Below, piece after piece: positions 1 through 42,269 of a DNA stretch of 64,000 nt. The DNA comes from a virus, in IMG/VR virus record IMGVR_UViG_3300046049_000005, positions 1-64,000 of that record; one strand, given 5' to 3'. How positions within the stretch are numbered: position 1 is the first letter of the stretch; each line of letters begins with the position of its first letter. The position numbers were made by a program, and so were the translations under genes. Below the pieces are notes generated by a model, which was given only the letters and a program-made list of their open reading frames with translations, was not told the DNA's origin and did no database searches.

Positions 1-693
1 GGCCGAAAATCAGACTGAGATGGCTCTGTTATGTGGTCGGGGTTACTAAATATCCCACCCACCCCCCACCCTCTGATGTTCTAACCCTCCGATGTATCCC
101 CCATACCCTCCATACTGAAGGAATACTTCACCTGAAGACCCGTCCACGCTTCGCCTCCGCGGTCTATACGTGTAACCCCCACCTGAAGGGGTACCTCCAG
201 GTTCGGGCAACGCCGACACACCCGGAGTGAAGCGCAGTGAAACCCACATAGGGGGCGCGGTTGTGTATGCAGGATGCACACCCACAGTCATTGCACCCCC
301 TGGGGACAGCTTCAAGCCTACTGAATTTTGGAGATTGGGGTACCCTCTGGAATTGGAGGGTTGAAGTCGCTTAGCTCCGGAATTTCTCGCCCGACATTTA
401 CCCCAATCCTTCGGTGTTGGTGGTTCTCCATCGTATTTTCGGAGAATAGAGGATTTAGACTGACTCAACCCCGGAGAACACCGTAGAAATCCCCAATACG
501 GTCGTTTTCAGAAGATAGAACATCCTAAGACCCTCATTTTCGGTGTCTTCTTTCAATGGGGGTTTGACTGAATATTAGGGGGGTGTGTGAACCGTTCAGA
601 ATCGCAAGACTTGTGCGCACAATGATGTGCATCGACCCCCCCTTAATCTCGACCGAAGGGTTTATGTAGTACCGGGTTGAACAGTGAACTGCG
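1..693. other. ORF-poor left-end non-coding region
   Basis: The only six-frame ORFs are Pro/Arg/Gly-rich, unlike the acidic proteome elsewhere. Contains C-runs and small hairpins. The first convincing gene starts at 694. It may include a genome terminus or terminal repeat, but no second copy is visible in the window. Confidence 0.5.
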
Positions 694-1404
694 ATGTCGG
701 AAAGCAACCGGCGGTCGAAGGTCGCAGCGAAGCTGAATGAACTGGCGAAAGCCCTTGAAGTGGACATCGAAGATGTCCAAGTCACCATCGAAGATGGTGG
801 GTTTAGCAACACCGTCATAGACGGTGTTGAGGTGGCCGAGTACCTCACCGAAGGTGAGGAGGAACAGACTCCTACGGAGTCTGAAAACGCCACCGAAGGT
901 GGCGACGAGGCGGAAATCCATTTCGAAGAAATGGATTACAAGCACCTTCAGAAGCTTGCTTCTGAAGAACTGGCGGAGTACCCCGAAGACTCCAGTCGAG
1001 ATGGCCTCATAGAGGCCATGAAGGGCAATGTCGGAATCGAAGATTCCGAGTTCCACCAGACTCCTACGGAGTCTGACAACACTACCGAAGGTAGTGACAC
1101 CGAAGCCGAAGTCAGCGAAGCTGACTTGCTGGAAGCCGGAGTGAAGCCGAAGAACATCGAAGATGTTCTGGAGTACCGTTCGAAGAACGGTGTTTGCTCC
1201 GTCGAAGACTGCCCCTACGGGGCAAGCTCCGAAGAGTCGGACCACTGTGCTTCCCATCGGGGAAGCAGTTCGAACTCGGAGAGTTCGGAGTCTCCGAAGG
1301 AGAACCGGGAACTGTCGGAACTCAGCGAAGCTGAGAAGAGCCTCGTTTCGACTCTCATCGAAGATGAGGGTAAGGGCCTCGAAGAGGCCATCAGCATGGT
1401 CTAA
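694..1404 (+). CDS. hypothetical acidic early protein with a Cys/His metal-binding-like patch
   Basis: 236-aa D/E/S/T-rich ORF. Internal duplication QTPTES(E/D)N(A/T)TEG. Patch CSVEDC...HCASH. C-terminal motif LSEAEKSLVSTLIEDEG resembles the C-terminus of 4503..5549. Contains five of the ATCGAAGAT palindromes. Confidence 0.75.
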   Translation: MSESNRRSKVAAKLNELAKALEVDIEDVQVTIEDGGFSNTVIDGVEVAEYLTEGEEEQTPTESENATEGGDEAEIHFEEMDYKHLQKLASEELAEYPEDSSRDGLIEAMKGNVGIEDSEFHQTPTESDNTTEGSDTEAEVSEADLLEAGVKPKNIEDVLEYRSKNGVCSVEDCPYGASSEESDHCASHRGSSSNSESSESPKENRELSELSEAEKSLVSTLIEDEGKGLEEAISMV

Positions 1405-1558
1405 CTCCCTTTGGGAGTTAAGGACTCAAAGCCTTTGGCTTTGAATCATCGTAGATGACTACCGGTGCCGATGACCACCTTCGGTGGTGACGGTCAGGCT
1501 CCAATTTCTTAGAAATCGTGAAACCCAATGACGACAGAATCCAACATCGAAGATGTTG
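761..1558. repeat. cluster of six perfect palindromes centred on ATCGAAGAT
   Basis: 761-779 TGGACATCGAAGATGTCCA; 783-799 CACCATCGAAGATGGTG; 1031-1049 TCGGAATCGAAGATTCCGA; 1151-1169 AGAACATCGAAGATGTTCT; 1354-1368 CTCATCGAAGATGAG; 1542-1558 CAACATCGAAGATGTTG. All are in frame as x-I-E-D-x. Confidence 0.9.
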
Positions 1559-1722
1559 CATCGACTTCAAACAATTCCGAAGAAGTCTGGTTCACCACTT
1601 ATAGTGGTGACGAAGAGACTCACGAAGAGTGGAAGTCGTCGCAAACCCTCGAAGGGACCATTAGCGAGTCTAACTCGCTAAGAGCTTCGAGGACCACCCC
1701 GACAGAAGGGGGGGAACGATGA
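1528..1722 (+). CDS. hypothetical acidic protein
   Basis: 64-aa acidic ORF. Its stop overlaps the next start (ATGA at 1719). Contains one ATCGAAGAT palindrome. Confidence 0.6.
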   Translation: MTTESNIEDVASTSNNSEEVWFTTYSGDEETHEEWKSSQTLEGTISESNSLRASRTTPTEGGER

Positions 1723-1949
1723 ATCCGAAGACCGCTTCGGACTTCCTCGTAGCCTCTCCAAAAGTCTTCGAGGGATGGAGTGAGGAAGAAGAAGACCGAT
1801 GGGAACGAATTGGAGAGGCATCCCATAAAGGATGGGTCTGGATGACCCCCGCCGGAGCTATTCCCATTCAACCGATGGAAGGCGACGAAGTCCTTCAGTT
1901 CCTTGAAGAGCTGACGAAGTCTCGGCCCAAAGAGGCGAGCAATGAATAA
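1719..1949 (+). CDS. hypothetical protein
   Basis: 76-aa ORF translationally coupled to both neighbours. Acidic, Trp-rich. Confidence 0.6.
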   Translation: MNPKTASDFLVASPKVFEGWSEEEEDRWERIGEASHKGWVWMTPAGAIPIQPMEGDEVLQFLEELTKSRPKEASNE

Positions 1950-2217
1950 ACTCCAAAGGAGTTTCGACCTAAGCCGTGACCCTTCCGAGTATGAGGCTTC
2001 GACTCACCTCCTTCAAATGATTCGAGAGAGAAACATCCTTGAAAAGGATGTCGTGACGGAAGTAATTGAAGAGGGGGAAGTGGTCAAAGTCGATAGTAAC
2101 AACGGGGGTTCTGACCAATGCGTAACCCTTCGGGGCGAATGGCTCTTTAGCACTTTCGAGGTGAAAGTCTGTCCGAGGGATAAGGTGGTTCAGACCGCTT
2201 ACGAAGTCAAAGCGTAA
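1942..2217 (+). CDS. hypothetical protein
   Basis: 91-aa acidic ORF overlapping the previous stop. Followed by a T-tract. Confidence 0.65.
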   Translation: MNKLQRSFDLSRDPSEYEASTHLLQMIRERNILEKDVVTEVIEEGEVVKVDSNNGGSDQCVTLRGEWLFSTFEVKVCPRDKVVQTAYEVKA

Positions 2218-2237
2218 GGGACTTTTCGGATTCCGTC

Positions 2238-2247
2238 TTTTTTATTT
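2238..2247 (+). terminator. oligo-T tract, candidate archaeal terminator of the first gene cluster
   Basis: CTTTTTTATTT starts 20 nt after the stop at 2217. Archaeal termination commonly uses T-runs. Confidence 0.45.
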
Positions 2248-2272
2248 AGCGATATTGTGAGTAGCCAAGCCG

Positions 2273-2528
2273 TTCTAAGAGCCATGAGTAGGTCGTGAAG
2301 GAATTTTGTGCCAAAGGCGGTGGTACCCCTCGTAGCTTCTTAGAATAGTTTCTAACCCCCGTCACGACTCCAGAAATAGGTACTAAGACTCAACTTTCCA
2401 TTCTTAGAGCCATGAATAGGGTCAAGAGCTATTTCTAACCAAAGCTAAGGCGTACCCCTCGGTAGCTATTTGATACGCTCTAAGCCCTACTCATGCCTCC
2501 AGAAATCCCTCTCAAGACTCAAGCCTCG
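2273..2528. repeat. two imperfect ~128-nt tandem repeats
   Basis: The units start TTCT(A/T)AGAGCCATGA(G/A)TAGG at 2273 and 2401. They share GTACCCCTCG(G)TAGCT, CCAGAAAT and AAGACTCAA (2385, 2514). An inverted CATGAGTAGG copy lies at 2484-2497. Confidence 0.7.
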
Positions 2529-2598
2529 GAAACAAATCTCTTTGTGGAAACTCTCAATGTCCTACTTCGGAAGTAACACCCCCATTGTACCAGTTCTA

Positions 2599-2690
2599 AA
2601 GGTGATACTCGGGAAAGGGAGTGATACCCTCAATGTACTACCCTCAAAGTGGATACTCGGGAAAGGAGTTACTACCCTCAAAGTGGATTG
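2599..2690. repeat. two ~38-nt direct repeats, period 48 nt
   Basis: AAGGTGATACTCGGGAAAGGGAGTGATACCCTCAATGT versus AAGTGGATACTCGGGAAAGGAGTTACTACCCTCAAAGT. The sub-repeat TACCCTCAA(A/T)GT occurs three times. Confidence 0.75.
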
Positions 2691-2733
2691 TTAGAGAGTA
2701 GACCTAAACGGTGTGTACCTTTGCGGGTTTAGT

Positions 2734-2788
2734 CTCGATAAGGGGGGCGGACCCTTACCGTGTTAACGTTCAGTGATATACTTATCCC
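2734..2788 (+). repeat. shared intergenic module (copy 1 of 3)
   Basis: CTCGATAAGGGGGGCGGACCCTTACCGTGTTAACGTTCAGTGATATACTTATCCC. About 80% identical to 22672-22726 and to the reverse complement of 22787-22842. The last 18 nt are identical to the latter. Confidence 0.85.
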
Positions 2789-2830
2789 TCCTATACTAAC
2801 CGTTCAGGTCCAACTTTTGGTCCTAACTAT

Positions 2831-2948
2831 ACGGTACGTACAGTTAACGGTACGTACCATTAATGGTATGTACAAAGAGTCACCACCCTTAGAGGGTACC
2901 ACAAAGGGAGTACCACCGTAGAGTGTTATACTATTATAATAATATTAC
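2831..2948. promoter_or_regulatory. iteron-like 16-nt repeats plus an AT-rich stretch (candidate origin or regulatory hub)
   Basis: Three tandem 16-mers (ACGGTACGTACAGTTA, ACGGTACGTACCATTA, ATGGTATGTACAAAGA) at 2831-2878, including the 10-nt palindrome GGTACGTACC. GTACCAC(C) repeats at 2881-2915. AT-rich GTTATACTATTATAATAATATTACA at 2924-2948. Confidence 0.4.
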
Positions 2949-3289
2949 AGCAGCAGGGAGTAAGCACACACGCGCGAGGCTCGCTTCGCTCCGCGACTCG
3001 CTTCGCTCGTCGCTTACCGCGACCGCTCCGCGAAGGGACCACCACCTTATCGAGATGGAACACAGGGGGGAACCCTTTGAAGGAATAAACACAGAGGGGG
3101 TTTCCCGAGGAGAATTTTTCCACCAGACTTACCCCGGAATCTATCCCAGTTAGCGGCAAATATTGTCGGAGCCGAAACCCAATTTTCAGTCTGTGAGAGT
3201 CGAAAAATCTATGTCTCTCAGTAATCCCTATTCTCCGATTTTGCCGATACAGACTCTCTATCGGCAGAAATCAGCAGCGCAGCGGGAAG

Positions 3290-4396
3290 CGATAGATATA
3301 AGTACAACCGGGTTGAATTGTATGATAGGTCGGCGCAGGTACGCGGGACATCTCCGGGCACACACGCGGTGTGTTGTGCCTCGGAGGTTCCCCCTCACCC
3401 CCGCTCGCGTAATTAAGTGGGGTCGAGGCGGCCTTTAAGGGCCTTCGGCCCTTGCACGATACCCCTCGAAGAGTTCCTTCGGGAAATGGTAGCCCTTGAC
3501 AGGGCTTGAAATAAGTGGGGCGGTTACAATGCACTCCCCGTTACGGGGAGACGTGTCAGTAGCCGTTGAATATCTAAAAGCGACGTTGGGGGCGTTCCCC
3601 CCTGAAGCCACGTTCGCTAAGTTCATCCCAAAACCCTTCGTGTTTAGTAAGCTTGGTCGCGGTCTTCGGAACAACGCGAACCGAAGCCTTCGGGCTTTGG
3701 GGATGTGGCGTTCCCCGGACACCAATCTTGGCCCTTTGGGTGAAGGACGTTATGACGGAAGTTCTCCCGAACGAACCCTCGGAAGGTGCGAAAGCAGAAG
3801 CGAGGCCGGGAAATAAACCATGTTTGAACGTCTAAGGCCATTGCGGGAGATGCACTTCGGCAGAAGTGAGTACCCCATTAGGGACCCCCCACTTCGGTAC
3901 CTGAAACCTCACGGTGAATGGGACGAAGTGGTCAGGGAACCGCCAGCTTTGGCTTCACGCCGAAGCGGTAGGAAACTCCAGCGTTGGAGTGGACCCGAAG
4001 CGGCGTTTCAGGGAGTTCGGACCCTTTGGCTCCTTGATAGCCCACGAAGGCCGACCGACCCAAGAGGGTCACGATGATACCGTTACGGAGCCAAAATTGC
4101 CACGGAAAACCGGACGTTGAAGCTTTCGGGTAAGGCATCGAGAGATGTTCCGTCGAAGGTGGAGTTACGGGTAATGTCCGAGGGACCGTTGGAGTCCTCC
4201 TTAAACGGAGTAAGCCAACTTACATTTAATCGGACTAAGACAACTGGCGCAACGCAACCTATGAATTGACGAGAGTTCCTCGTCAGTTCAATCCGCGCTT
4301 CAAAGCGAACGGGAGCAACGAAGAGGCCTTCGGCCTCGGTTGTTACGGCGATGATGTAACGGAACTGACAAAGCCAGGAGATAGCGGCGTCGGTTA
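3290..4396 (+). ncRNA. candidate large structured non-coding RNA (class unknown)
   Basis: About 1.1 kb with no acidic ORF; the six-frame ORFs are Arg/Pro/Gly-rich. Dense stable hairpins, many capped by CTTCGG or GAAA: 3437-3453, 3474-3485, 3491-3506, 3534-3550, 3588-3601, 3684-3697, 3777-3805, 3853-3868, 3975-3990, 4268-4284, 4323-4337. Long-range pairings 3889-3895/3925-3931 and 4025-4033/4087-4095. Strand and ends are inferred. Confidence 0.5.
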
Positions 4397-4430
4397 GGAC
4401 CGCAGAGAAATTTATAAAAATCTGCGGTCC
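4397..4430 (+). promoter_or_regulatory. 10-bp inverted repeat enclosing a TATA-like box
   Basis: GGACCGCAGA-gaaatttataaaaa-TCTGCGGTCC. The TTTATA lies in the loop, about 90 nt upstream of the ATG at 4503. This looks like a promoter with an operator-like symmetry. Confidence 0.45.
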
Positions 4431-4502
4431 CCGACCCCGACCCCTTCGGGAGCGGTAAGGGGAGTGACGTTGCTCTACTTAGTGAGCAACACCCCAACTG
4501 CA

Positions 4503-5549
4503 ATGGCTATCGACTTCGCAACTCCGACCGCCGAACGTAGTAACGACAGCAACAGCAACGACGACGGTAGCGAGGCGTCTTTCGACGCGAATGAGTTGGC
4601 GGAGCTTTACATCGAAGCTTCGGAGTACGCCGCAACGCTCGCTGAAATGCGAGAGGCCAACGACATCGGGTGGCCTTCGATGGAGAGTGACCCTTCGATG
4701 GAGCAGTATTCGGACCTTCGGAGTCGTCACGAAGACAGCCACATCGCAAAGCGCCTCACCGTTTTCGCGGTTTGCGCGAAGGGCGAGCTTGGTGAGGAGC
4801 AGAACCACGTTAACGACCATTCCATCTCCGATTACGAAGAGTCGTATCCGGAGCTTCCCAGAACCACCTGGAGTGGTCTAAACGACGACGAGAAGGAGAT
4901 GCTTCGTGACGAAGGCATCGACCTCGAAGAGCTTGGCTTCGATGACGACTTCGATGGGCCGAAGCTTCTCGAAGTCGATGGCGAGCGACTGCCCCTCGGT
5001 CTTGAAGAGGGCGATGTGGAAAAGGCGGAGCGCATCTTCGGTAAGCTTCCCACCGAGCCTTCCGCCGCTACCGAAGATGGCTTCCGCGAGTCTTCCGACC
5101 CCGCCGTTTTCGGTGACGCCGATTCCAGCGAGGAAAGCACCGATAAGGTGGTGGATGATGACAGCGAAGACGACGCCGAGGCTGTCGAAGACAGCGAGGC
5201 GGAGGATGAGCCGGAGCTGGACCTTGCCGAGAATCCCGCCGCCGTTACCGAGGCCAACGCTCTGTACGTTCGAAGCGCCGTGACTGACATCACTTCGAAG
5301 CGTACCCTTCAGCGGATGAAGCGGGTCGAAGAGACGAACGACAACCGGAGCAGCGTTATCGGTCGCATCGAAGAGCGGCTTAACGCTTCGGATGTTGGCA
5401 ACGCCGCAGATACCGTTGACGGTGACAGCGACAGCGACAACAGCGACGACCGCAGCCTTAACGAGACTGAGATGAATCTCGCCACCACCCTTATCGAGAA
5501 CGACATCGTTGATAACCTCGATGAGGCCAAGGCGGAAATTCTCGGCTAA
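4503..5549 (+). CDS. hypothetical highly acidic protein
   Basis: Long D/E-rich ORF. The ORF track starts at a GTG at 4464; the first ATG (MAIDFATP) is at 4503. C-terminal LNETEMNLATTLIENDIV parallels the C-terminus of 694..1404. Confidence 0.75.
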   Translation: MAIDFATPTAERSNDSNSNDDGSEASFDANELAELYIEASEYAATLAEMREANDIGWPSMESDPSMEQYSDLRSRHEDSHIAKRLTVFAVCAKGELGEEQNHVNDHSISDYEESYPELPRTTWSGLNDDEKEMLRDEGIDLEELGFDDDFDGPKLLEVDGERLPLGLEEGDVEKAERIFGKLPTEPSAATEDGFRESSDPAVFGDADSSEESTDKVVDDDSEDDAEAVEDSEAEDEPELDLAENPAAVTEANALYVRSAVTDITSKRTLQRMKRVEETNDNRSSVIGRIEERLNASDVGNAADTVDGDSDSDNSDDRSLNETEMNLATTLIENDIVDNLDEAKAEILG

Positions 5550-9111: not shown

Positions 9112-11934
9112 ATGGCTTCGCAAGAACTTCCGACAATCGAGGATAGTACCGATAACGGCGCTGATGTGAAAAGCGCCGAAGAGAAGTGGCGTGACGTTAG
9201 CGTCATCGACAATACGGGCAACGCTACGGTTCGAGAGTTCGATGCCGCGAGTGACGACCACCCCCTCGTTCAGTACATGGGGTCGAAGCATCTGAAGACG
9301 GACATTCAGGGTGGCGGCGAGTTCGTCAGCGAAGAGATTTACGAGGGCGATTATGCCTTCGTTCGGGAGTGGCTTCAGAACCAGGAGACGGCTTGCATAC
9401 GGCGATGCAAGATGATAGTCGAACTTAGCGACGAGCATCCCGATGGTTGGCTCACAATGACGATGTGGGTCGATTCCAATACCGGAGATACCGTTCTCGG
9501 TCCCGACGAGAACCAAGCGGTTCTTGCCGAATACGACGACGTTTCCGCTGCTGACATTCGGAAAACAGAGATTCCGAGGCCCATCGATGACGTGATGGAG
9601 GCCGCAAAGTCCCTCGGATACGACCCCACTATTGAGTGGGACGTGTATCTTGACGAGCGTAAGATAGTCACCGAAGATAACGGCATCGGCATGACTCCCG
9701 AGGAGTTCGTGGAGGGCTTCAAGTCCCCTTTTAGTTCAGGTTCGGGTGTTGACGGTGAAACCGGAGGTAACTTCGGTATCGGCAGCAACTCGGTCGAGAA
9801 GGTCCACGGTGCCGAAGGCTCGGTCTGTGTGACGACTCTTTCTGCCCGTCCCGGTGACTGGGAAGGCTTCACGGGGTACTCTTACAGGGGTGGTGTCACC
9901 GCTGTCGATGGCGAGAAGCGCGAGGAACCCGGCACCTTTTTCGAGATTCCCGTTTGCGATGACTTCGACCTCGATAATCTCCAAGAGCAAATCGAGACGT
10001 ATACCGAGATGCTTCGGGTCCCCGTCAAATACGCTGAACACAACGCTGGGGTTCAGCCCGTTGACGAGGAATATGAATCTACACGATTCATCGATGAACA
10101 CGACAACCCACCGATAGTCATCGACCGACCCGGCGAGTTCACCCTTGTTGCCGGTCCCGACGTTTACGATGACAGTTTCAGGTCCGACGATGATAATACG
10201 TATCTGGTTTCGATGCCGATTGACCGCAACACGTCGGCCCGAATCAGCACCTTCTGGAATATTGTGATTCAGATTCACGACGAGCAGGGCCGAATTGTCA
10301 GCGGTCCGAATCGTGGCCGATACCACAACAACGGTTCGGTCTACCTCACCGGTGAGAACATCGAGAAGGTGGACGACTTCCAGCCCGACGACGTTGCTTT
10401 GCCTGTCCCAACGGGGGACCGTGACCGTCTCGCAAGCAACTCCGAATCCAAGGAGTTCTTCTATTACATTCAGGATGTAGTCAAGGAGCGAGAGATTTCT
10501 AAGGCCGCTAAGATAGCCAAGCGTATGAAGCACGCCGACCACGCCGCAGATGTCATAAAGGGCAATAGCGGCAAGTGGCGGCTCTTCACGAAGATGATTG
10601 ACTATCACGGTTCACGCCGTGTTACTGATTGCAAACAAAATTTCCGCGATTTCATCAAGGACCAGGACACCTTCCCTGACTTCAGCAGGGAAAAGATAGA
10701 CGAGATGTACGAGCTGTTTCGGTCGATTGAGGTATGTCACAAAGGCCCCCGCCGTTCCAATAAGAAGAGCGAACGACGACAGGCCACTCTTGGCGACCTC
10801 TTCGCTAAGGCGGACCCAGATACGGTCTACATGGCGGCCTCGACCGGCGGTAAGTTCACTGAACGCTTCCGTGTTGCCGACAAAACACACGAAGAATATG
10901 CCGTTGTAGTCGTTGATGGTGCAAGGCGCTATGACGAATACGGTGAAGCGTTCGGATTCGAGGTTCTGAAGGACGTTCCCCTCACCCGAGATGAAGACCA
11001 CGACTACGATATTCCGAATCAAATTCACAAGAGAAATAGCCAGAAGCGTCAGAGTAGCACCAGTAACGAGAAGCTGAAGCTGCGTACCGGTTACGATAGC
11101 TCCGCAATCGACCTTCGGTTGAGCATTGACAGAGTTCAGGACCTCTTAGAGAGTGGCGGAGGTTTCGACGGCCATTCAAAGTTGGTGCTGTTCCCTCGGG
11201 GCGGTGACAGAGAGAACATCAGCGACCACTACGACGTAGCAGACCACGCCGCGATTGCTTCGGTGTCGGTTAGCGAGTACGAACAGTTGGCCGACTACGA
11301 TAACGTGATGACCTTTGATGAGTTCGAAGAGTGGTCCCGCACCGCCCTTATCGCTACCGAAGATGGAGCGATGACCCCCGAAGAACTCGTCAATGATGAC
11401 CGAATGGTCGTTCTCGCCTACCGCACATGCCCCGAAGGTGGGACGGTAGTGAAGCTTTTATCTGACAGACACGAGAGGCTTCGGGAGTTCTACGCTGAAG
11501 ATGTCCGCGACCAGTTGGACTGGGCCGCCCGTCTCGATGGCTACGACGGCGGCTACGGCGGCGACGACGTGGGTAACGTTCCCGACGACGAGAAGGATGA
11601 CACCCTCTTTGCCGTTGCCTGTGAAACCGTCCTAAATCGAGCAGAGTGGGCGTTCTCGGAGCTTCGCTTCAACAGTAGGGATGTCCTCGGACTCAAACTT
11701 GAGGGCGGTACATACGGCTACAAGACGCCGTGTGAATGGATTTCGCTTGACGGGGATAAGGAAACCTATCAACTGAAGGTAGACACCCCGAAGTGGGATA
11801 ACGACAGCGAAGTCTACGACATCTTCCCTCGTAGTCGTCAAAGCACTACTGGACAGGTCTATCTCGGCCTTCATGACCGAGGAATAGACCCAACTGAGGT
11901 CGATGATGTTCGTGACGAAATAGCACAGGATTAA
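9112..11934 (+). CDS. Hsp90/HtpG-like GHKL-family ATPase domain protein (940 aa)
   Basis: N-box-like FVREWLQNQETACIRR, G1 box EDNGIGMTPEEF and G2 box GGNFGIGSNS appear in the order and spacing typical of the Bergerat ATP-binding fold. The remaining ~700 aa have no motif I recognise. Confidence 0.7.
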   Translation: MASQELPTIEDSTDNGADVKSAEEKWRDVSVIDNTGNATVREFDAASDDHPLVQYMGSKHLKTDIQGGGEFVSEEIYEGDYAFVREWLQNQETACIRRCKMIVELSDEHPDGWLTMTMWVDSNTGDTVLGPDENQAVLAEYDDVSAADIRKTEIPRPIDDVMEAAKSLGYDPTIEWDVYLDERKIVTEDNGIGMTPEEFVEGFKSPFSSGSGVDGETGGNFGIGSNSVEKVHGAEGSVCVTTLSARPGDWEGFTGYSYRGGVTAVDGEKREEPGTFFEIPVCDDFDLDNLQEQIETYTEMLRVPVKYAEHNAGVQPVDEEYESTRFIDEHDNPPIVIDRPGEFTLVAGPDVYDDSFRSDDDNTYLVSMPIDRNTSARISTFWNIVIQIHDEQGRIVSGPNRGRYHNNGSVYLTGENIEKVDDFQPDDVALPVPTGDRDRLASNSESKEFFYYIQDVVKEREISKAAKIAKRMKHADHAADVIKGNSGKWRLFTKMIDYHGSRRVTDCKQNFRDFIKDQDTFPDFSREKIDEMYELFRSIEVCHKGPRRSNKKSERRQATLGDLFAKADPDTVYMAASTGGKFTERFRVADKTHEEYAVVVVDGARRYDEYGEAFGFEVLKDVPLTRDEDHDYDIPNQIHKRNSQKRQSSTSNEKLKLRTGYDSSAIDLRLSIDRVQDLLESGGGFDGHSKLVLFPRGGDRENISDHYDVADHAAIASVSVSEYEQLADYDNVMTFDEFEEWSRTALIATEDGAMTPEELVNDDRMVVLAYRTCPEGGTVVKLLSDRHERLREFYAEDVRDQLDWAARLDGYDGGYGGDDVGNVPDDEKDDTLFAVACETVLNRAEWAFSELRFNSRDVLGLKLEGGTYGYKTPCEWISLDGDKETYQLKVDTPKWDNDSEVYDIFPRSRQSTTGQVYLGLHDRGIDPTEVDDVRDEIAQD

Positions 11935-15003: not shown

Positions 15004-15027
15004 CTTGCCGGAGGTTAATTGTTTGGT

Positions 15028-15996
15028 ATGACCTATTCTCGAAAAGAGTGTACGGAAGCACTACAAGAAGCAACAGAATTGCTTGGCAAATCGCCAACCC
15101 AAGATGAATATATCAATCTTGATATTTCCCCATCTCACACTACGATTAGTCGTATCTTTGGCTCTTGGAACAAAGCCAAGGAAGCCGCTGACCTTGAAAC
15201 AATCAACCGAAGAGAATACAGTAAACAAGAATGTATTGATTCGCTCCGCCGTGCGGCAGAACTGCTTGGAAAGTCACCGAGCCATGACCGATTCAATGAG
15301 TTAGACTTGAAGCCGTCTGCTAATCATATCAATGATGTTTTTGATTCGTGGGCCAATGCCAAAGAAGAGGCGGGCCTTCAACGAGGAGATATAAAGCCAG
15401 TAAATACTGAATTTTTCCGCAAACCTCTCACCAATGAGGCCGCTTACTGGCTTGGAATGCTATGGGGAGATGGTGGTATCACTAAAAGGGGGGAAGAGAA
15501 GTATGAAATGTCTTTCGGCCTTTCTGAAAAGGACGCTGGTCACGTTCGAGCTTTTAAAAATGCTATCGAAAGTGAACACTCTCTTGTGAATAGCGGTGGA
15601 AACGAATGTGTAAGAATTTATATCTCTCGGGGCGATTTCCTTCAACCTCTCCTTGATTATGGCTTCAAGCCGGGAAAGACTACTTCAAGTTCCTTGCCCC
15701 CACTCAGCGAACCGAGCAAACGGCGTGATTTCATCCGCGGTCTAAACGATGCTGATGGGTATGTCGAGAAGACTGGAGTTCAAATTGCTGGTGTATCTAA
15801 AAAGCGGTTTGAAAAGCTCGAAAATTGGATACCATACAAAACATCAATCTACAAATACTGCCGAGAAGACCGACAAAACATCTTCACTCTCGTTACAATG
15901 AGCAGTGACTACGAAGAAGTGATAAACTGGATGTACCCCAACGGCCACGATACAAGCCCCGCCCTTGCTCGAAAACTCCAAGCGGCGCTCGACTAA
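15028..15996 (+). CDS. free-standing LAGLIDADG homing endonuclease with two N-terminal homing-endonuclease-associated repeats
   Basis: Tandem repeats ...KECTEALQEATELLGKSPTQDEY...IFGSWNKAKEAA and ...KQECIDSLRRAAELLGKSPSHDRF...VFDSWANAKEEA. LAGLIDADG motifs YWLGMLWGDGG and FIRGLNDADGYV. Clearly lower GC than the flanks. Confidence 0.8.
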   Translation: MTYSRKECTEALQEATELLGKSPTQDEYINLDISPSHTTISRIFGSWNKAKEAADLETINRREYSKQECIDSLRRAAELLGKSPSHDRFNELDLKPSANHINDVFDSWANAKEEAGLQRGDIKPVNTEFFRKPLTNEAAYWLGMLWGDGGITKRGEEKYEMSFGLSEKDAGHVRAFKNAIESEHSLVNSGGNECVRIYISRGDFLQPLLDYGFKPGKTTSSSLPPLSEPSKRRDFIRGLNDADGYVEKTGVQIAGVSKKRFEKLENWIPYKTSIYKYCREDRQNIFTLVTMSSDYEEVINWMYPNGHDTSPALARKLQAALD

Positions 15997-24514: not shown

Positions 24515-24588
24515 GCCGAGGTAGCTCAAATGGTAGCAGCGACTGTCTGTTACACAGTAGGTTCGAGGTTCGAGTCCTCGCCTCGGCG
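24515..24588 (+). tRNA. tRNA-Asn (anticodon GTT)
   Basis: Manual fold. Acceptor GCCGAGG/CCTCGGC. D arm GCT-/-AGC with one mismatch. Anticodon stem ACTGT/ACAGT with loop CTGTTAC. 5-nt variable loop. T arm CGAGG-TTCGAGT-CCTCG. Discriminator G. 74 nt. Confidence 0.85.
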
Positions 24589-24743
24589 CTTACCGAGAAC
24601 ACGACTCAGAGACGTGAATCTCCTTAACGGGAGAGATACAATGTGGCCTGCAACGGTCGCTCTCGGCTTCCACGGTTCGGCGTCACAACCGACCGTGGCC
24701 TTTCGGTCAGGAAGTTCGGTACTATGCTGTCTCAAATTTAGAA

Positions 24744-25130
24744 ATGGGAACTAATCGTAACGGCGAAATAGCAGAACAAATAGTAGCATCAACTCTCCTT
24801 AAACTTGGCTTCAATGCCTCGGAACCAGTTCTTGAGGACCGCTACGACCTAATAGCCGACATTGGGGGCGACCTCGTGAAGGTTCAGGTAAAGAAGGGGT
24901 ACAAGGACGGGTCAAGAGAAAACACGTTTAGAGCAAATCTTGAGAACCAAATTCAATCCGAAGATGGATTTACTAAGTATTCCGACGAAAATGTTGATGC
25001 TTTTGCTCTATACGACAGCTCGTGCGAATCAGTTTACTGGTTGTGGAAAGACGAAGCTCCAGAAACGGAATTGCGGAGAAAGTATAGTAAGATGAAAAAG
25101 TTCCAAGCGAAGAAACGGCTGACAAGTTAG
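24744..25130 (+). CDS. PD-(D/E)xK-fold nuclease-like protein
   Basis: GEIAEQIVASTLLKLGF ... RYDLIAD ... LVKVQVKKG fits the E ... D ... (E/Q)-x-K pattern of small phage and group I intron-associated endonucleases. Low GC. Sits between two tRNA genes. Confidence 0.55.
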   Translation: MGTNRNGEIAEQIVASTLLKLGFNASEPVLEDRYDLIADIGGDLVKVQVKKGYKDGSRENTFRANLENQIQSEDGFTKYSDENVDAFALYDSSCESVYWLWKDEAPETELRRKYSKMKKFQAKKRLTS

Positions 25131-25204
25131 TCTCGTAGCAAAGCGGCCAAAAGCGCCGGGCTTTGAACCCGGAGATACCGTGAGTTCGAATCTCACCGGG
25201 ACTA
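25129..25204 (+). tRNA. tRNA-Gln-like (anticodon TTG), atypical
   Basis: Acceptor AGTCTCG/CGGGACT. Anticodon stem CCGGG/CCCGG with loop CTTTGAA. T arm GTGAG-TTCGAAT-CTCAC. Discriminator A. The D stem has only ~2 bp and the variable loop is 7 nt. Its 5' end overlaps the TAG stop of 24744..25130. Confidence 0.6.
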
Positions 25205-25274
25205 TTGGCCGCGCAAGTTGGCGTTGAGCGCGGAGCCTCGCCCAAATGACGCCACCTCCGTTTATGTTCGACCA

Positions 25275-39086: not shown

Positions 39087-39216
39087 GTGCGGTAACTGGG
39101 AGTACGGAGAAGAGCCTCGGAAATGCCCGCTCTGTGGTACTGAAGCCCGTGAAGAACAGCCCCGTTACGGTACGACCATCTCGATTACCTGTGATGGCTG
39201 GAGTGATATAGAATAA
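39073..39216 (+). CDS. small rubredoxin-like zinc-ribbon protein (47 aa)
   Basis: MVIYKCGNWEYGEEPRKCPLCGTEAREEQ... The last base of its stop is the first base of the polB ATG. Confidence 0.45.
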   Translation: MVIYKCGNWEYGEEPRKCPLCGTEAREEQPRYGTTISITCDGWSDIE

Positions 39217-42200
39217 TGTCAGAAAAACTATATGTGACGACAGTAGAGTCGCTGTATCCGGGCGAGACAAACTTTGACTCTGTTGTCGTCAGACTGTACG
39301 GACGGAACGCGGAGCGCGAACCACTCAGAGTGACTGTCCGGGGGTTCTCGCCGTACTTCCTCACTACCGAGGACCAAACCGATAAGGTGCAGCCGGCAGA
39401 CCACCAGGACCTTATCGAGTACGAATCCGTGGATACCATTCCGCTCTCCGAACGCTTTGACGACGAACCCTCTGACTTGGTGAAGGTCAACGTCAAATAT
39501 CCACATTCGGTGCCGCGACTCCGCGAAGAGTTCGACAAGACCTGGGGTGCTGACACCCTCTTCACCGAACGTTTTCGGATTGACCACGGCATCAAGAGCG
39601 GTGTAGAGGTTCCCACCGATAATCGGCGGGGGAATCACATCATCGTAGACAAAGACCATATTTCTCCTGTGGAGATTACCGATGTGGAACCAAGGGTGAT
39701 GACCCTCGACATCGAGACGGACGACCGTGGTTCAGGGTTCCCCGACCCCGGCGAGGCTCGGATTCTGAGCATTGCCGTCCACGACAGCTACGACGATGAA
39801 TACACGGTCTTTCTCGACCGCGACCGCGAGGATTTCGAGTCGTTCTTCGACCTGTCTCCCGTTCAGCGTGCGAAACTCGCCAACGACGACGAAGAGTTCG
39901 GGCTTGCCGACCTCGGCATCGACCAACCCGACGCGCTGAAGCACTCCCCAACCGAAAAGACCATGCTCGACCTTTTCGGGCTGTTCGTTCGGGAGAAAAA
40001 TCCAGATTTACTGACAGGATGGAATTGCGGTGACAGCAGCAATGATGGCTTCGACCTGCCCCACATCATCAAACGTATGAAGCGTGTCGGAGCCAAAGCC
40101 TCGCGCCTTTCACGAGAGTCTGAGGTAGAGATTGACGACTACAACGACCAATTCAAACCCAACATCGCGGGTCGCGCTCTCTACGACCTTATGGATGGCT
40201 GGGGCGATACGAAGTTCACTGAACCGCGCTCCTACGCTCTTGACGATGTTGCTGAAGATGCGCTCGATGATACCAAAATCGAGCATCAGGAGCAGGGGTA
40301 CTATGAGATGTACCGCGACAATCCTGTCAAATTTATTAATTACAACGTCAAAGACACCCGCCTCACCGTGGAAATCAACGAGGAAGAAGGCGTTCTGAAG
40401 TTCAAGCGTAGACTAAAGGACATCGTTGGCGTGGACTGGAGACGGACGCACGAGAACAACGAGTTCATCGAGATGGCCGTGCGTCGGAAGTGCCGAGAAA
40501 ATGGTCTTGCGATGATTACAGCCTACGACAACCCCCACGTCGGGGGCGATACCGATGAAGTAAACTACGAAGGGGCCTACGTTTTTCCTTCTTTCTCGGG
40601 ACGTAAGGAGAACGTCGTCGGCATCGATTTGGAGTCTCTATATCCTCGGACTCAGCAGATGCTCAATGTCAGTCCCGATGCCCGTATCGAAAAAGAGCGT
40701 GCAGAGCGAGAAGGGATACCGCACGTAGTTGCCGAAAACGGACAGACGTTCCGTACTGACCACGACGGAATTGTCCGTGAATTGGTTGACGACTATATGG
40801 TCCTGAAGCAGGAGTTCAAGGAAGAGCGCAATCAGGCAGAACCGGGTAGTGATAGGAGAGAGAAGTTGGCCGAATCCTATAATGTCACTAAAACGATAGT
40901 TAACTCGATATACGGTTATTCGGGGTGGAACCGTTCTCCGCTCTACAATCCACACGACGCCGCCGCTGTCACCCTTACCGGTCAGGCCGTTATCAAGAGA
41001 ACCGCGGAGTATGTCGATGAAGAAACCGAAGGAAGTGTGGCATATGGCGATTCTGTCCCTGACTTCGAGCCGGTGTACGTCCGAGTCGATGGTGACGTAG
41101 ATATACGACCTATCGAGTCTGTGCACGATAGTCTCGAACCGGGAGAGTTTGAGGTGTGGGCTGACGGTGGTTGGACTACCTGTAACGATGTGATTCGAAA
41201 GCCCAACAGGAAACAAATGTACCGTGTCAGAACAGATAACGGACTCGTCCATGTTACTGAAGACCACGGGTTAGTCCGAGATGATGGAACTGAAGTACCC
41301 CCTACGGATGTTGAACCCGGCGACCATCTATTACATACATCGCTTCAATCTGCTACCGGGGACACCAGCAACATCTCTCTCGATAAGGCGTGGCTCTATG
41401 GACTGCTCGTGGCAGACGGAACTGCAATAGGGTCACAGTTTAAAATCTGCAAAAATGATGTCGGGCTTTTGGAGAGAGCCGCGACAGCGTTAGACATCTG
41501 CTTCGGGTTCGATACAGAAATTTGTGACTACCGCGAATCGAGCGGCACCAAGCAACTTCGTGGCGGAGATAATGAATACGGTGCCGTCTCAGAGCTGGTG
41601 AGCGAACTCGAACCGAAGCTATACACTCCTGACGGGAAGAAAAGAGTTCCAAAGTCCGTGTTGAATGGGTCGTCGTGGGTGATGAAGGCGTTCCTCGATG
41701 GCTACCAAGCCGGCGACGGTGACGGAGATGAGAGATACGAAAAGAGGTTCCACCGCTCCTACACAAACAGCCACACTCTTGGTGCTGGCCTTACATACAT
41801 TCTCGACCGTCTTGGACAGGATGCCGGCGTCAATGTTCGAGATAATCACGGGAAGGAATATCCCCGGATTCATTCTCGGGAAGATGCTGGCTGTCGAACA
41901 GAAGTGCTTGAGGTTGAACCGATAGACTACGAAGGAGAGTACGTCTACGACCTCTCAACTGATTCGGAACACTTCAATGCAGGAATTGGACGAATCACAG
42001 TCCACAACACAGATAGCGTCTACTGTAAGTGGCCTGACGATTGGGGACAGATAAAGACTCTCGAAACCGTAGAGGAACATTGCGAACATCTAAACAATTC
42101 TATCTATCCTCAATTGTGTGAAAAGTACGGAATCGACCCCGAGGACAATAAGTGGCGCATGGAGCTTGAGAAGTTAGGAATGATGTTTATGGCCGGGGGG

Positions 42201-42269
42201 AAGAAGCGATACGCAAGCTCGGTTAGGTGGTCCGAGGGGATGCCCTTCAATGAGGTGTTGGTAGAATGA
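39216..42269 (+). CDS. polB: family-B DNA polymerase, N-terminal ORF (exonuclease and palm/fingers, includes an intein)
   Basis: Exo I MTLDIETD, Exo II GWNCGDSSNDGFDLPH, Exo III YNVKDTRL. Motif A GIDLESLYP, motif B KTIVNSIYGYSG. Motif C YGD|TDS is interrupted by the intein. KKRYA follows the intein. Confidence 0.9.
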   Translation: MSEKLYVTTVESLYPGETNFDSVVVRLYGRNAEREPLRVTVRGFSPYFLTTEDQTDKVQPADHQDLIEYESVDTIPLSERFDDEPSDLVKVNVKYPHSVPRLREEFDKTWGADTLFTERFRIDHGIKSGVEVPTDNRRGNHIIVDKDHISPVEITDVEPRVMTLDIETDDRGSGFPDPGEARILSIAVHDSYDDEYTVFLDRDREDFESFFDLSPVQRAKLANDDEEFGLADLGIDQPDALKHSPTEKTMLDLFGLFVREKNPDLLTGWNCGDSSNDGFDLPHIIKRMKRVGAKASRLSRESEVEIDDYNDQFKPNIAGRALYDLMDGWGDTKFTEPRSYALDDVAEDALDDTKIEHQEQGYYEMYRDNPVKFINYNVKDTRLTVEINEEEGVLKFKRRLKDIVGVDWRRTHENNEFIEMAVRRKCRENGLAMITAYDNPHVGGDTDEVNYEGAYVFPSFSGRKENVVGIDLESLYPRTQQMLNVSPDARIEKERAEREGIPHVVAENGQTFRTDHDGIVRELVDDYMVLKQEFKEERNQAEPGSDRREKLAESYNVTKTIVNSIYGYSGWNRSPLYNPHDAAAVTLTGQAVIKRTAEYVDEETEGSVAYGDSVPDFEPVYVRVDGDVDIRPIESVHDSLEPGEFEVWADGGWTTCNDVIRKPNRKQMYRVRTDNGLVHVTEDHGLVRDDGTEVPPTDVEPGDHLLHTSLQSATGDTSNISLDKAWLYGLLVADGTAIGSQFKICKNDVGLLERAATALDICFGFDTEICDYRESSGTKQLRGGDNEYGAVSELVSELEPKLYTPDGKKRVPKSVLNGSSWVMKAFLDGYQAGDGDGDERYEKRFHRSYTNSHTLGAGLTYILDRLGQDAGVNVRDNHGKEYPRIHSREDAGCRTEVLEVEPIDYEGEYVYDLSTDSEHFNAGIGRITVHNTDSVYCKWPDDWGQIKTLETVEEHCEHLNNSIYPQLCEKYGIDPEDNKWRMELEKLGMMFMAGGKKRYASSVRWSEGMPFNEVLVE
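41052..42008 (+). mobile_element. intein (319 aa) with a LAGLIDADG homing endonuclease, inserted in polymerase motif C
   Basis: The host sequence reads ...VAYGD / SVPDF...ITVHN / TDSVY... It starts with Ser and ends with His-Asn, with +1 Thr restoring YGDTDS. Internal LAGLIDADG blocks LYGLLVADGT and FLDGYQAGDG. Confidence 0.85.

Follow-up and report, generated by a model that had tools for sequence, protein, structure and literature searches.

Few natural RNA classes longer than 500 nt with conserved and intricate folds are known, and to our knowledge each large RNA studied so far (the ribosome, RNase P, group I and II introns, HEARO/omega RNA and GOLLD/ROOL/OLE) has revealed new biochemistry. 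GOLLD and ROOL are presented in one account as RNAs that function as RNA assemblies, as seen by cryo-electron microscopy (PMC12286853). For OLE RNA, a kink-turn (K-turn) is described in another account as required for recognition by its protein partner (PMC9723947). No RNA longer than 500 nt with an intricate fold is described for an archaeal virus in the searchable literature. The RNA analyzed here, with a length of ~1.1 kb and ~100 covarying pairs, is encoded at about 3322-4400 in a stretch of 64,000 nt from the IMG/VR virus record IMGVR_UViG_3300046049_000005. This stretch, termed the window, represents most of a metagenomic contig of ~72.7 kb from a haloarchaeal myovirus. A first-pass annotation of the window proposed that a large structured RNA outside the known classes is located in this region. 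This proposal is borne out by the conservation of the element, its covariation, the presence of a promoter and the lack of a match in Rfam 15. We are highly confident that the element is a real, conserved structured RNA.

The decisive evidence for this RNA is comparative, not thermodynamic. Eight distinct homologues were aligned over 1247 columns (alignment A2) and a consensus fold was calculated by RNAalifold. The consensus comprises 54 helices with 290 pairs in total; its energy is -328.7 kcal/mol, and the covariation term is -31. Standard pairs fill 96.7% of the pair cells of A2, as compared with 38-51% in slid controls, in which the 3' partners are shifted by 1-3 columns and the sequence relatedness is retained. 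Compensatory changes on both sides are detected at 96 pairs, as compared with 15-33 in the slid controls. Thus, these controls retain relatedness, yet stay 3-6 fold below the observed covariation. None of 500 shuffles reaches any of five observed measures. A covariation check on aligned syntenic regions of relatives was suggested in the first-pass annotation, and its outcome strongly supports the RNA. At the predicted pairs, G-U is found 261 times and A-C only 19 times, indicating that the plus strand is the one that folds. The reverse-complement alignment folds 48 kcal/mol worse (RNAalifold energies of -281 and -329 kcal/mol for the minus and plus strands respectively).

The RNA is predicted from these comparisons to form four helix-closed domains with ~54 helices, several of them long-range, which are kept on the plus strand by compensatory changes. 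The long-range helices backed by covariation are 3454-3459/3638-3643, 3516-3519/3627-3630, 3660-3668/4045-4053, 3674-3679/4003-4008, 4081-4086/4356-4361 and 4254-4259/4338-4343. A second alignment, A7, covers domain 2 in 12 sequences from four lineages. It was guided by a covariance model and therefore leans towards this model; 99.3% of its cells are paired, 14 of its 34 pairs are compensatory, and one hairpin is inverted from GGGG/CCCC to CCCC/GGGG. The minimum free energy (MFE) of the whole element (3325-4400) is -439.8 kcal/mol, with a z-score of -4.8 against 25 dinucleotide shuffles (-3.5 for the minus strand). The sequence CTTCGG occurs seven times in 1.08 kb, as compared with 0.9 times per kb in the rest of the window, and is thus enriched ~7-fold. 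The local folding energy alone is unconvincing. With a length of ~1.08 kb, no conserved open reading frame (ORF), no codon periodicity and a covarying multi-helix fold, the element belongs among the large structured non-coding RNAs, a class defined by these features and a length of more than 500 nt.

In at least five virus lineages, among them the cultured Mincapvirus isolates, the RNA element is more strongly conserved than the genes next to it. The flanking proteins have relatives in a large protein collection, and by synteny the RNA was located in the contigs of eight distinct metagenomic relatives. The gene order is the same in all of them. The terminase and head genes are located on the minus strand, and are followed on the plus strand by the gene of an acidic protein of 210-250 aa and a few small genes, then by a gene-free gap of 1.8-2.3 kb, and then by a homologue of the 348-aa acidic protein, the gene of which starts downstream of the RNA in the window with ATG at 4503. 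According to blastn, window 3138-4463 is 75-80% identical in nucleotide sequence to L002, L004, L005 and L007, and window 3481-4440 is 68-70% identical to L013, L017 and L018. The nucleotide identity of the RNA element is therefore 68-80%, as compared with about 39-79% identity for the flanking proteins in the relatives. In L005, for example, the upstream protein is 41% identical and the RNA is 79% identical. When the same five genomes are compared, 68% of the columns are invariant in the RNA element and 60% in the downstream gene. With the covariance models, a single RNA copy is detected in each genome, in every case at the syntenic position; the window holds no other.

The HSP90-like protein of the window (940 aa, 9112-11934) has its nearest cultured relatives, with ~38% amino-acid identity, in the Mincapvirus isolates HSTV-2, HRTV-7, HRTV-2, HRTV-11, HCTV-6 and HCTV-15 (family Hafunaviridae). 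HSTV-2, HRTV-7 and HCTV-6 have the same ~2-kb gap at the locus, or small 'hypothetical' ORFs that fill this gap. An nhmmer profile of A2 matches these three viruses collinearly at profile positions 42-1173 (E 1e-17 to 1e-20). The copies are as follows.

Locus L012, 2334-3318: HSTV-2 copy, detected by nhmmer; about 65,200-66,250 on the minus strand of NC_020159
Locus L021, 2315-3300: HCTV-6 copy, detected by nhmmer
Locus L022, two matched pieces spanning 2465-3302: HRTV-7 copy, detected by nhmmer

The Mincapvirus version is ~1.0 kb long. Its core helices are kept with double changes, as seen in HSTV-2, and some peripheral hairpins are shortened or absent. A conserved core with a variable periphery is the typical pattern of large functional RNAs. 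Covariance models were constructed from two sub-domains, R1 (window 3512-3634) and R2 (window 4096-4252). R1 matches every relative, with E values of about 1e-10 for HSTV-2, HCTV-6 and HRTV-7 and 1e-21 for L032. R2 also matches all relatives: its E values are 1e-49 to 1e-56 in the close relatives, 1e-13 in HSTV-2, HCTV-6 and HRTV-7, and 1e-17 in L032. The matches of both models to HSTV-2, HRTV-7 and HCTV-6 extend over the full model length. L032 is a further metagenomic lineage that carries the RNA, as judged from its R1 and R2 matches. Searches that do not rely on synteny are negative. A blastn search of 2200-4500 against 50,697 phage records gives no match, scans of IMG/VR, JGI metagenome contigs and GTDB genomes for exact 20-29-mers give nothing or chance matches (L010, and L011 in Neolewinella), and protein-guided scans of IMG/VR with the downstream protein and the HSP90-like protein find nothing. 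The cultured homologues were found only by nhmmer and covariance models, after synteny had pointed to them.

The region at ~3322-4400 of the window is non-coding. With 27 long acidic genes of the window as the training set, a codon-usage log-odds score stays at 0.05 or lower in all six frames at ~2160-4300. No longer run of this kind is found in the first 6 kb, and the genes flanking it reach scores of 0.3-0.5. All six translations of the element are interrupted by stop codons, basic and rich in Arg, Pro and Gly, as compared with the acidic proteome. These two results agree with the first-pass annotation, in which the region was regarded as ORF-free with Arg/Pro/Gly-rich translations. The variable columns of the element are distributed over the three codon phases as 188/187/197 (p = 0.85), indicating that there is no 3-base periodicity. 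In contrast, those of the adjacent gene are distributed as 105/103/221 (p = 1e-14), with an excess at the third position. Gap runs that are not multiples of 3 account for 202 of 225 in the element and for 9 of 38 in the adjacent gene. An ORF of 91 aa, which a gene caller places on the element in L007, switches frame relative to the window. A protein-coding gene is rejected, because there is no conserved frame, no third-position excess and no restriction of indels to multiples of 3.

The predicted features of the RNA are listed below in window coordinates.

3322-4400, plus strand: RNA body, ~1.08 kb, delimited by covariation and by the lack of a coding signal
3329-3432, plus strand: domain 1, closed by 3329-3332/3429-3432 (helices 2-7)
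3345-3354, 3356-3381 and 3393-3428, plus strand: inner hairpins of domain 1
3437-3453, plus strand: hairpin AAGGGCC-UUC-GGCCCUU (helix 8)
3454-3643, plus strand: domain 2, closed by the long-range helix 3454-3459/3638-3643 (helices 9-16)
3466-3482, 3491-3506 and 3512-3634, plus strand: variable hairpin, second hairpin and conserved three-way core of domain 2 respectively
3660-4053, plus strand: domain 3, closed by 3660-3668/4045-4053 and 3674-3679/4003-4008 (helices 17-34)
3685-3698, 3846-3875, 3882-3941, 3942-3969, 3971-3995 and 4009-4036, plus strand: hairpins of domain 3
3777-3800, plus strand: invariant purine-rich block CCCUCGGAAGG..GAAAGCAGA of domain 3
4057-4070, plus strand: hairpin GACCC-AAGA-GGGUC (helix 35), inside a long invariant block
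4081-4361, plus strand: domain 4, closed by the K-turn strands
4081-4092, plus strand: non-bulged strand of the K-turn, 5'-CGUUAC G GA GCC, paired with 4347-4361 (helices 36 and 37)
4347-4361, plus strand: bulged strand of the K-turn, 5'-GGC GAU GA U GUAACG, with canonical (C) stem, 3-nt bulge, tandem G.A and non-canonical (NC) stem
4096-4252, plus strand: conserved core of domain 4, with helix 4099-4102/4245-4248 around six hairpins and the invariant block GGUGGAGUUACGGGUAAUG
4254-4343, plus strand: sub-domain closed by 4254-4259/4338-4343, with hairpins 4262-4290, 4297-4316 and 4323-4337 (helices 46-50)
4363-4398, plus strand: 3' hairpin with stem 4363-4369/4389-4395 (helix 51), and conserved block CGGUUAGG at 4391-4398

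Domain 1 is the most variable in sequence, and several of its pairs change on both sides between clades. The hairpin at 3437-3453 is compensatory in four of seven pairs (GGGGGUC/GACCCCU and GGGGCC/GGCCUC), and helix 47 in eight of 12. Helix 17, which closes domain 3, is kept in HSTV-2 with one compensatory change. The variation in helix 35 is limited to changes from G-C to G-U. The sequence GGUUAGGG is invariant across the metagenomic set and is GUAAGGG in HSTV-2. Long invariant blocks, which are mostly unpaired, are located at the junctions, for example GACGUGUCAGUAGCCGUUGAAUAUCUAAA, CCCUCGGAAGG..GAAAGCAGA, CCGACCGACCCAAGAGGGUCACGAUGA and GGUGGAGUUACGGGUAAUG.

Thirteen helices or pairings were listed in the first-pass annotation. 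The sequences of all of them are present at their positions, and 10 of the 13 are helices of the consensus: the hairpins at 3437-3453, 3491-3506, 3534-3550, 3588-3601, 3684-3697, 3853-3868, 3975-3990, 4268-4284 and 4323-4337, and the long-range pairing 3889-3895/3925-3931. The pairing of 4025-4033 with 4087-4095 does not hold, because GGAGCCAAA is invariant and the proposed partner varies without compensation. In the consensus, 4009-4017 pairs with 4028-4036 instead, and 4090-4092 with 4347-4349, and both of these pairings covary. The other two hairpins are only candidates: that at 3474-3485 is part of a longer, variable hairpin in which the window carries a deletion, and at 3777-3805 there is hardly any variation in the CUCG/CGAG stem.

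The junction that closes the 3' domain is predicted to be a K-turn, perfect in sequence. When the layout is compared in 11 sequences, the K-turn consensus of C stem, 3-nt bulge, tandem G.A/A.G and NC stem is found. The NC stem covaries from GUAACG/CGUUAC to GUCACG/CGUGAC in the L013 clade and GGCUCG/CGAGCC in HSTV-2, and the C stem from GGC/GCC to GAC/GUC in HSTV-2. No variation is seen in the GAUGA and GA elements, other than A at position 2n in the Mincapvirus isolates. Archaeal K-turns bind L7Ae, and by analogy this K-turn would be expected to bind it as well. A reading of the K-turn region as a box C/D guide was rejected, because conservation is lacking in the D'-like CUGA that follows the C-like box (CCAG in L017 and L018). 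The architecture of box C/D RNAs, which are 50-70 nt long and have C, D', C' and D boxes with guides of ~12 nt, is not found either: there are no conserved D'/C' boxes, no guide spacing and no C/D match in Rfam.

The elements that flank the RNA are as follows.

3290-3302, plus strand: archaeal-type promoter, with transcription factor B recognition element (BRE)-like AGCGAT and TATA-like GATATAAGTA; box at 3293-3302
4397-4430, plus strand: terminal hairpin GGACCGCAGA/UCUGCGGUCC, with arms 4397-4406/4421-4430 and loop TTTATAAAA at 4411-4419
4435-4502, plus strand: conserved leader of the downstream gene, with hairpin GUUGCUC-UACUUAGU-GAGCAAC at 4469-4490

The promoter is kept as (A)ATCG..G(A/G)TTTAT(A/G)T in all lineages, and also precedes the RNA of HF2 type described below. 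The box of HSTV-2 is GGTTTATGTAC at L012 2245-2255. The sigma-70 promoter model is not applicable to archaea. The box at ~3293 was noticed in the first-pass annotation and is present and conserved; its resemblance to the start of the upstream paralogous units, which was also claimed, is weak. The distance from the TATA box to the start site is usually 22-27 nt in haloarchaea, and from this distance transcription is estimated to start at about 3320-3326, near 3322. The conserved RNA probably ends at ~4400-4430, as far as transcript ends can be read from the sequence. A stable terminal hairpin is located at the same spot in every lineage, and its sequence differs between them. The sequence TTTATAAAA in its loop is likely to be the TATA box of the next gene. 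Thus, the inverted repeat with a TATA box that was noted at this site is present in the window, but a TATA box in the loop is found only in the window, L013 and L017, and is not universal among the relatives.

The leader at 4435-4502 is probably outside the RNA. It contains the C-rich block CCCCGACCCCGACCCC as well as UUCGGGAG, and its hairpin at 4469-4490 covaries to GUUACCC/GGGUAAC. In L004, the leader is duplicated (about 4780-4893) ahead of an inserted ORF of 150 aa, which separates the RNA from the 348-aa gene. Given this duplication, the leader looks like a portable 5'-untranslated region module. The true start of the downstream gene is likely to be ATG at 4503, not GTG at 4464.

Upstream of the RNA promoter, window 2218-3290 is repeat-rich and ORF-free. 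It contains two paralogous units of ~130 nt (2263-2392 and 2391-2522), which are ~55% identical to each other and conserved in L002, L004 and L005, a 48-nt tandem (2569-2664), 16-17-nt tandems (2831-2862 and 2975-3008) and an AT-rich palindrome (2924-2949). In HSTV-2, the equivalent place is occupied by another, different stretch rich in repeats. This region could be an origin, a regulatory region or a source of small RNAs. Hairpins are also abundant at 700-1700, where the gene of a 236-aa acidic protein (694-1404) and the small genes after it are full of short perfect palindromic hairpins with CGAAG, UACG or UUCG loops, such as AACATCGAAGATGTT and CAGACTCCTACGGAGTCTG (each found twice). On either strand of this region, local folding gives MFE z-scores between -4 and -9.4, far more extreme than in the RNA element. 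This region scores as coding, and the 236-aa protein has 24 homologues.

Other recognizable products of the window are an intein-containing DNA polymerase of family B, baseplate J, a tail sheath and a tape-measure protein. The intein of the polymerase (39216-42269) carries a LAGLIDADG domain, and a separate protein of 325 aa (15019-15996) contains HNH-associated repeats and a LAGLIDADG domain, indicating that homing elements are present in the genome. The tRNA genes Asn-GTT (24515-24589) and Gln-TTG (25128-25205) are located mid-genome, 20 kb from the large RNA.

A counterpart of the RNA is found in the HF1/HF2 group (Haloferacalesvirus). HF2 (L023, NC_003345) has no coding sequence (CDS) between its 306-bp terminal repeat and position 1970, and the following RNA is located there.

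Locus L023, about 530-1965, plus strand: HF2-type RNA, ~1.4 kb, supported by covariation; homologous stretches in L024-L031

For the HF2 stretch, identity within the HF1 group amounts to 82-90%, and in the HRTV-24/HSTV-4 clade it is about 72%. An alignment of nine genomes gives 352 consensus pairs, which are 94.6% paired as compared with 37-47% in slid controls. Compensatory changes are detected at 123 pairs, as compared with 21-30 in the controls. The plus strand is favoured, both in energy (-361 versus -300 kcal/mol) and in the ratio of G-U (332) to A-C (35). Like the window-type RNA, the HF2-type RNA precedes the first early gene, with the genome terminus or terminal repeat on its other side, points inward and is CDS-free. 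A promoter block is common to both types, namely ATCG..GGTTTATAT followed by AACCGGG/ACCCGG (window 3282-3312; L012 2238-2262; L023 510-540). The RNA bodies of the two types show no similarity either by nhmmer or by the covariance models R1 and R2, which give zero matches in the HF1/HF2-group loci, and the downstream genes of the two types have no detectable similarity. The shared promoter block suggests that the loci are orthologous and that the RNA bodies have diverged or been replaced. The left arm of HF2 is transcribed first, and its major left-end transcripts in Northern blots are unexplained by intergenic-repeat promoters (PMC8707807). It therefore appears that the early arm begins with a kilobase structured RNA throughout the family. 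Together with the HF1/HF2 counterpart, the element suggests that a large RNA is a conserved and unrecognized part of the early programme of the whole family.

Several CDSs are annotated in GenBank as 'hypothetical proteins' on these RNAs: HSTV2_103 (L012 2897-3040), HRTV-7 gene 105 (L022 2881-3024) and HCTV-6 gp102-105 (L021 2119-3022) on the window type. On the HF2 type, HRTV-24 gp131-133 (L030 1208-1991) are annotated. They lie on structured RNAs without conserved reading frames and are probably mis-annotations, so that the database annotation is corrected by this analysis.

It is probable that the element is a functional structured non-coding RNA that acts as an RNA or a ribonucleoprotein (RNP), and not as a protein, a DNA structure or a simple leader. 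Several observations weigh against this reading. The z-scores of local 200-nt folding are unremarkable (-0.2 to -3.8). Only about five independent lineages are available, and shared ancestry inflates covariation counts. The K-turn is the only one in the RNA, and in HSTV-2 it has A instead of G at position 2n. No informative domain and no RNA-binding partner is found among the neighbouring proteins by Pfam and PHROGs, the antisense search is negative, and no target, ligand or partner protein has been identified. No U-tract or intrinsic terminator is detected after the element by a terminator scan, and in L002, L004, L005, L018 and HSTV-2 no TATA box separates the RNA from the next gene. For these two reasons, the RNA may be the 5' part of an early mRNA. 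It would then be a giant cis-acting 5' leader of the early operon, which is cotranscribed with it and controls or processes the mRNA through attenuation, stability or translation. The constant position of the element directly upstream of the homologous acidic protein gene, on the same strand, is consistent with such a leader, as is the lack of a TATA box in the terminal hairpin of several relatives including HSTV-2. We nevertheless consider it unlikely, because the window, L013 and L017 do have this TATA box, and because in L004 an extra gene with its own leader copy and TATA hairpin is located between the RNA and the usual gene while the RNA is unchanged, which argues against tight coupling. 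Moreover, 1.1 kb with ~54 conserved helices far exceeds known leaders, and the HF2-type counterpart precedes a gene without detectable similarity. The RNA might also be a replication transcript, with 2218-3290 as the origin and the RNA as a primer or activator, like ColE1 RNA II or the origin transcripts of T7/T4. Direct repeats, tandem units of 16-48 nt and the AT-rich palindrome are located directly upstream, HSTV-2 is repeat-rich at the same place, and the HF2 RNA gene adjoins the terminal repeat and an annotated 'putative nick site in genome replication'. However, the promoter is directed away from the repeats, little conservation is seen in the upstream repeats when lineages are compared whereas the RNA is well conserved, and a primer needs neither a conserved four-domain fold nor a K-turn nor long invariant single-stranded blocks. 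A replication transcript is therefore improbable.

A DNA-level element, in which hairpins or cruciforms serve packaging, recombination or replication, would fit the location within a few kb of the genome terminus. Watson-Crick covariation alone cannot separate RNA from DNA, and the minus strand also folds well (-281 kcal/mol). However, the strands are asymmetric, because the 261 G-U pairs would be A-C mismatches on the other strand, as compared with 19 in the opposite sense. The K-turn and the C(UUCG)G loops are RNA-specific motifs, the conserved promoter is rightly placed and oriented, and the nested long-range helices span up to 400 nt. We regard a DNA-level element as very improbable. A degenerate or unconventional coding region (a pseudogene, programmed frameshifting or small ORFs) is barely conceivable. 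It would account for the small ORFs annotated on the element, namely HSTV2_103, HRTV-7 gene 105, HCTV-6 gp102-105 and the 91-aa ORF of L007, but these ORFs are not conserved, and that of L007 changes frame relative to the window. The element has no 3-base periodicity and no frame with a positive coding score, its indels are not multiples of 3, and its translations are basic and Arg/Pro/Gly-rich in an acidic proteome. Thus, the data effectively exclude both a DNA-level structure and a coding region.

Host RNA polymerase would transcribe the element immediately after genome entry, because it comes first in the early arm, which faces inward and from which the earliest transcripts of HF2 are made. 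Host L7Ae would be recruited by the K-turn, so that the RNA would function as an RNP, and the long invariant unpaired blocks may form a tertiary core or surfaces that bind ligands or proteins. As a tentative proposal, the RNA may act in trans as an early RNP, by scaffolding or sequestering factors of the host or the virus in cell takeover or defence evasion; this role is favoured because of its position, where other tailed viruses put their first anti-host functions. A catalytic (ribozyme) role and a self-assembling, cage-like role of the GOLLD/ROOL kind fit the data equally well; each of the two is rated as unlikely. Antisense targets in the 64-kb window were rejected as an explanation: 20 matches of at least 12 nt are found, as compared with eight expected (maximum 23), and all of them are located in non-conserved parts. 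With more reserve than the takeover role, it may be speculated that all Hafunavirid haloarchaeal myoviruses carry a kilobase ornate RNA as their first early unit, in two diverged forms, and that this RNA belongs to a new class of viral machines needed for takeover or anti-defence. If this is the case, the RNA could be a ribozyme, or a self-assembling, L7Ae-containing RNP or cage; it would be without precedent in the archaeal domain and open to study in cultured virus-host pairs. The RNA is present in laboratory-grown isolates (HSTV-2, HRTV-7, HCTV-6 and others on Halorubrum or Haloarcula), and is thus experimentally accessible.

The element represents a new RNA class and is not a member of any described family. 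A search against Rfam 15 (4227 families) by cmscan, as suggested in the first-pass annotation, was done at gathering thresholds and at E <= 10. No family is matched; the only hit in the window is a chance DUF805b fragment of 15.6 bits at 2220-2237. The HSTV-2 copy and the HF2 RNA have no match in Rfam 15 either. The element does not match the covariance models of GOLLD, ROOL, OLE, HEARO and raiA, and there is no Rfam match to group I/II introns, RNase P RNA, signal recognition particle (SRP) RNA, rRNA fragments or H/ACA RNA. An intron interrupts a host gene, but the element is flanked by intact genes or by intergenic repeats. Across 8 million searchable full texts, a large non-coding RNA is nowhere described for these viruses, a scope that does not extend to Tang et al. 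2002 and Sencilo et al. 2013. For the HF1 group, the main genome papers on Hafunaviridae discuss only tRNA-like elements, a hammerhead ribozyme and intergenic-repeat promoters (PMC8651126, PMC7230728, PMC8707807, PMC3950731).

The element resembles several known systems in part. It shares with the K-turn RNPs of archaea (box C/D small RNAs, RNase P RNA and rRNA) the K-turn consensus at 4081-4092/4347-4361, and its GCGAUGA resembles box C. However, it lacks box C/D architecture and matches none of the C/D, H/ACA, RNase P, SRP and rRNA families. Like phi29 pRNA, it is a structured RNA beside one end of the linear genome of a tailed virus. The pRNA itself has an early promoter and acts in trans within the viral machine, but it is only ~170 nt long and belongs to a protein-primed, terminase-less packaging motor, whereas the relatives of this virus encode a large terminase. 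OLE is likewise a large, highly conserved structured RNA from extreme environments, and it functions as a ribonucleoprotein. It differs from the element in being cellular, in being found in extremophilic Bacillota with the partner genes oapA-C adjacent to it, and in being ~600 nt long; the element is viral and archaeal. GOLLD and ROOL often adjoin tRNA genes, whereas the tRNAs nearest to the element are 20 kb away. The element is also longer (~1.1 kb), has a K-turn and is found in an archaeal virus instead of a bacteriophage. Nevertheless, like GOLLD and ROOL, which are 0.6-0.8 kb or larger, it is a virus-encoded, multi-domain non-coding RNA with many covarying helices and invariant junctions.

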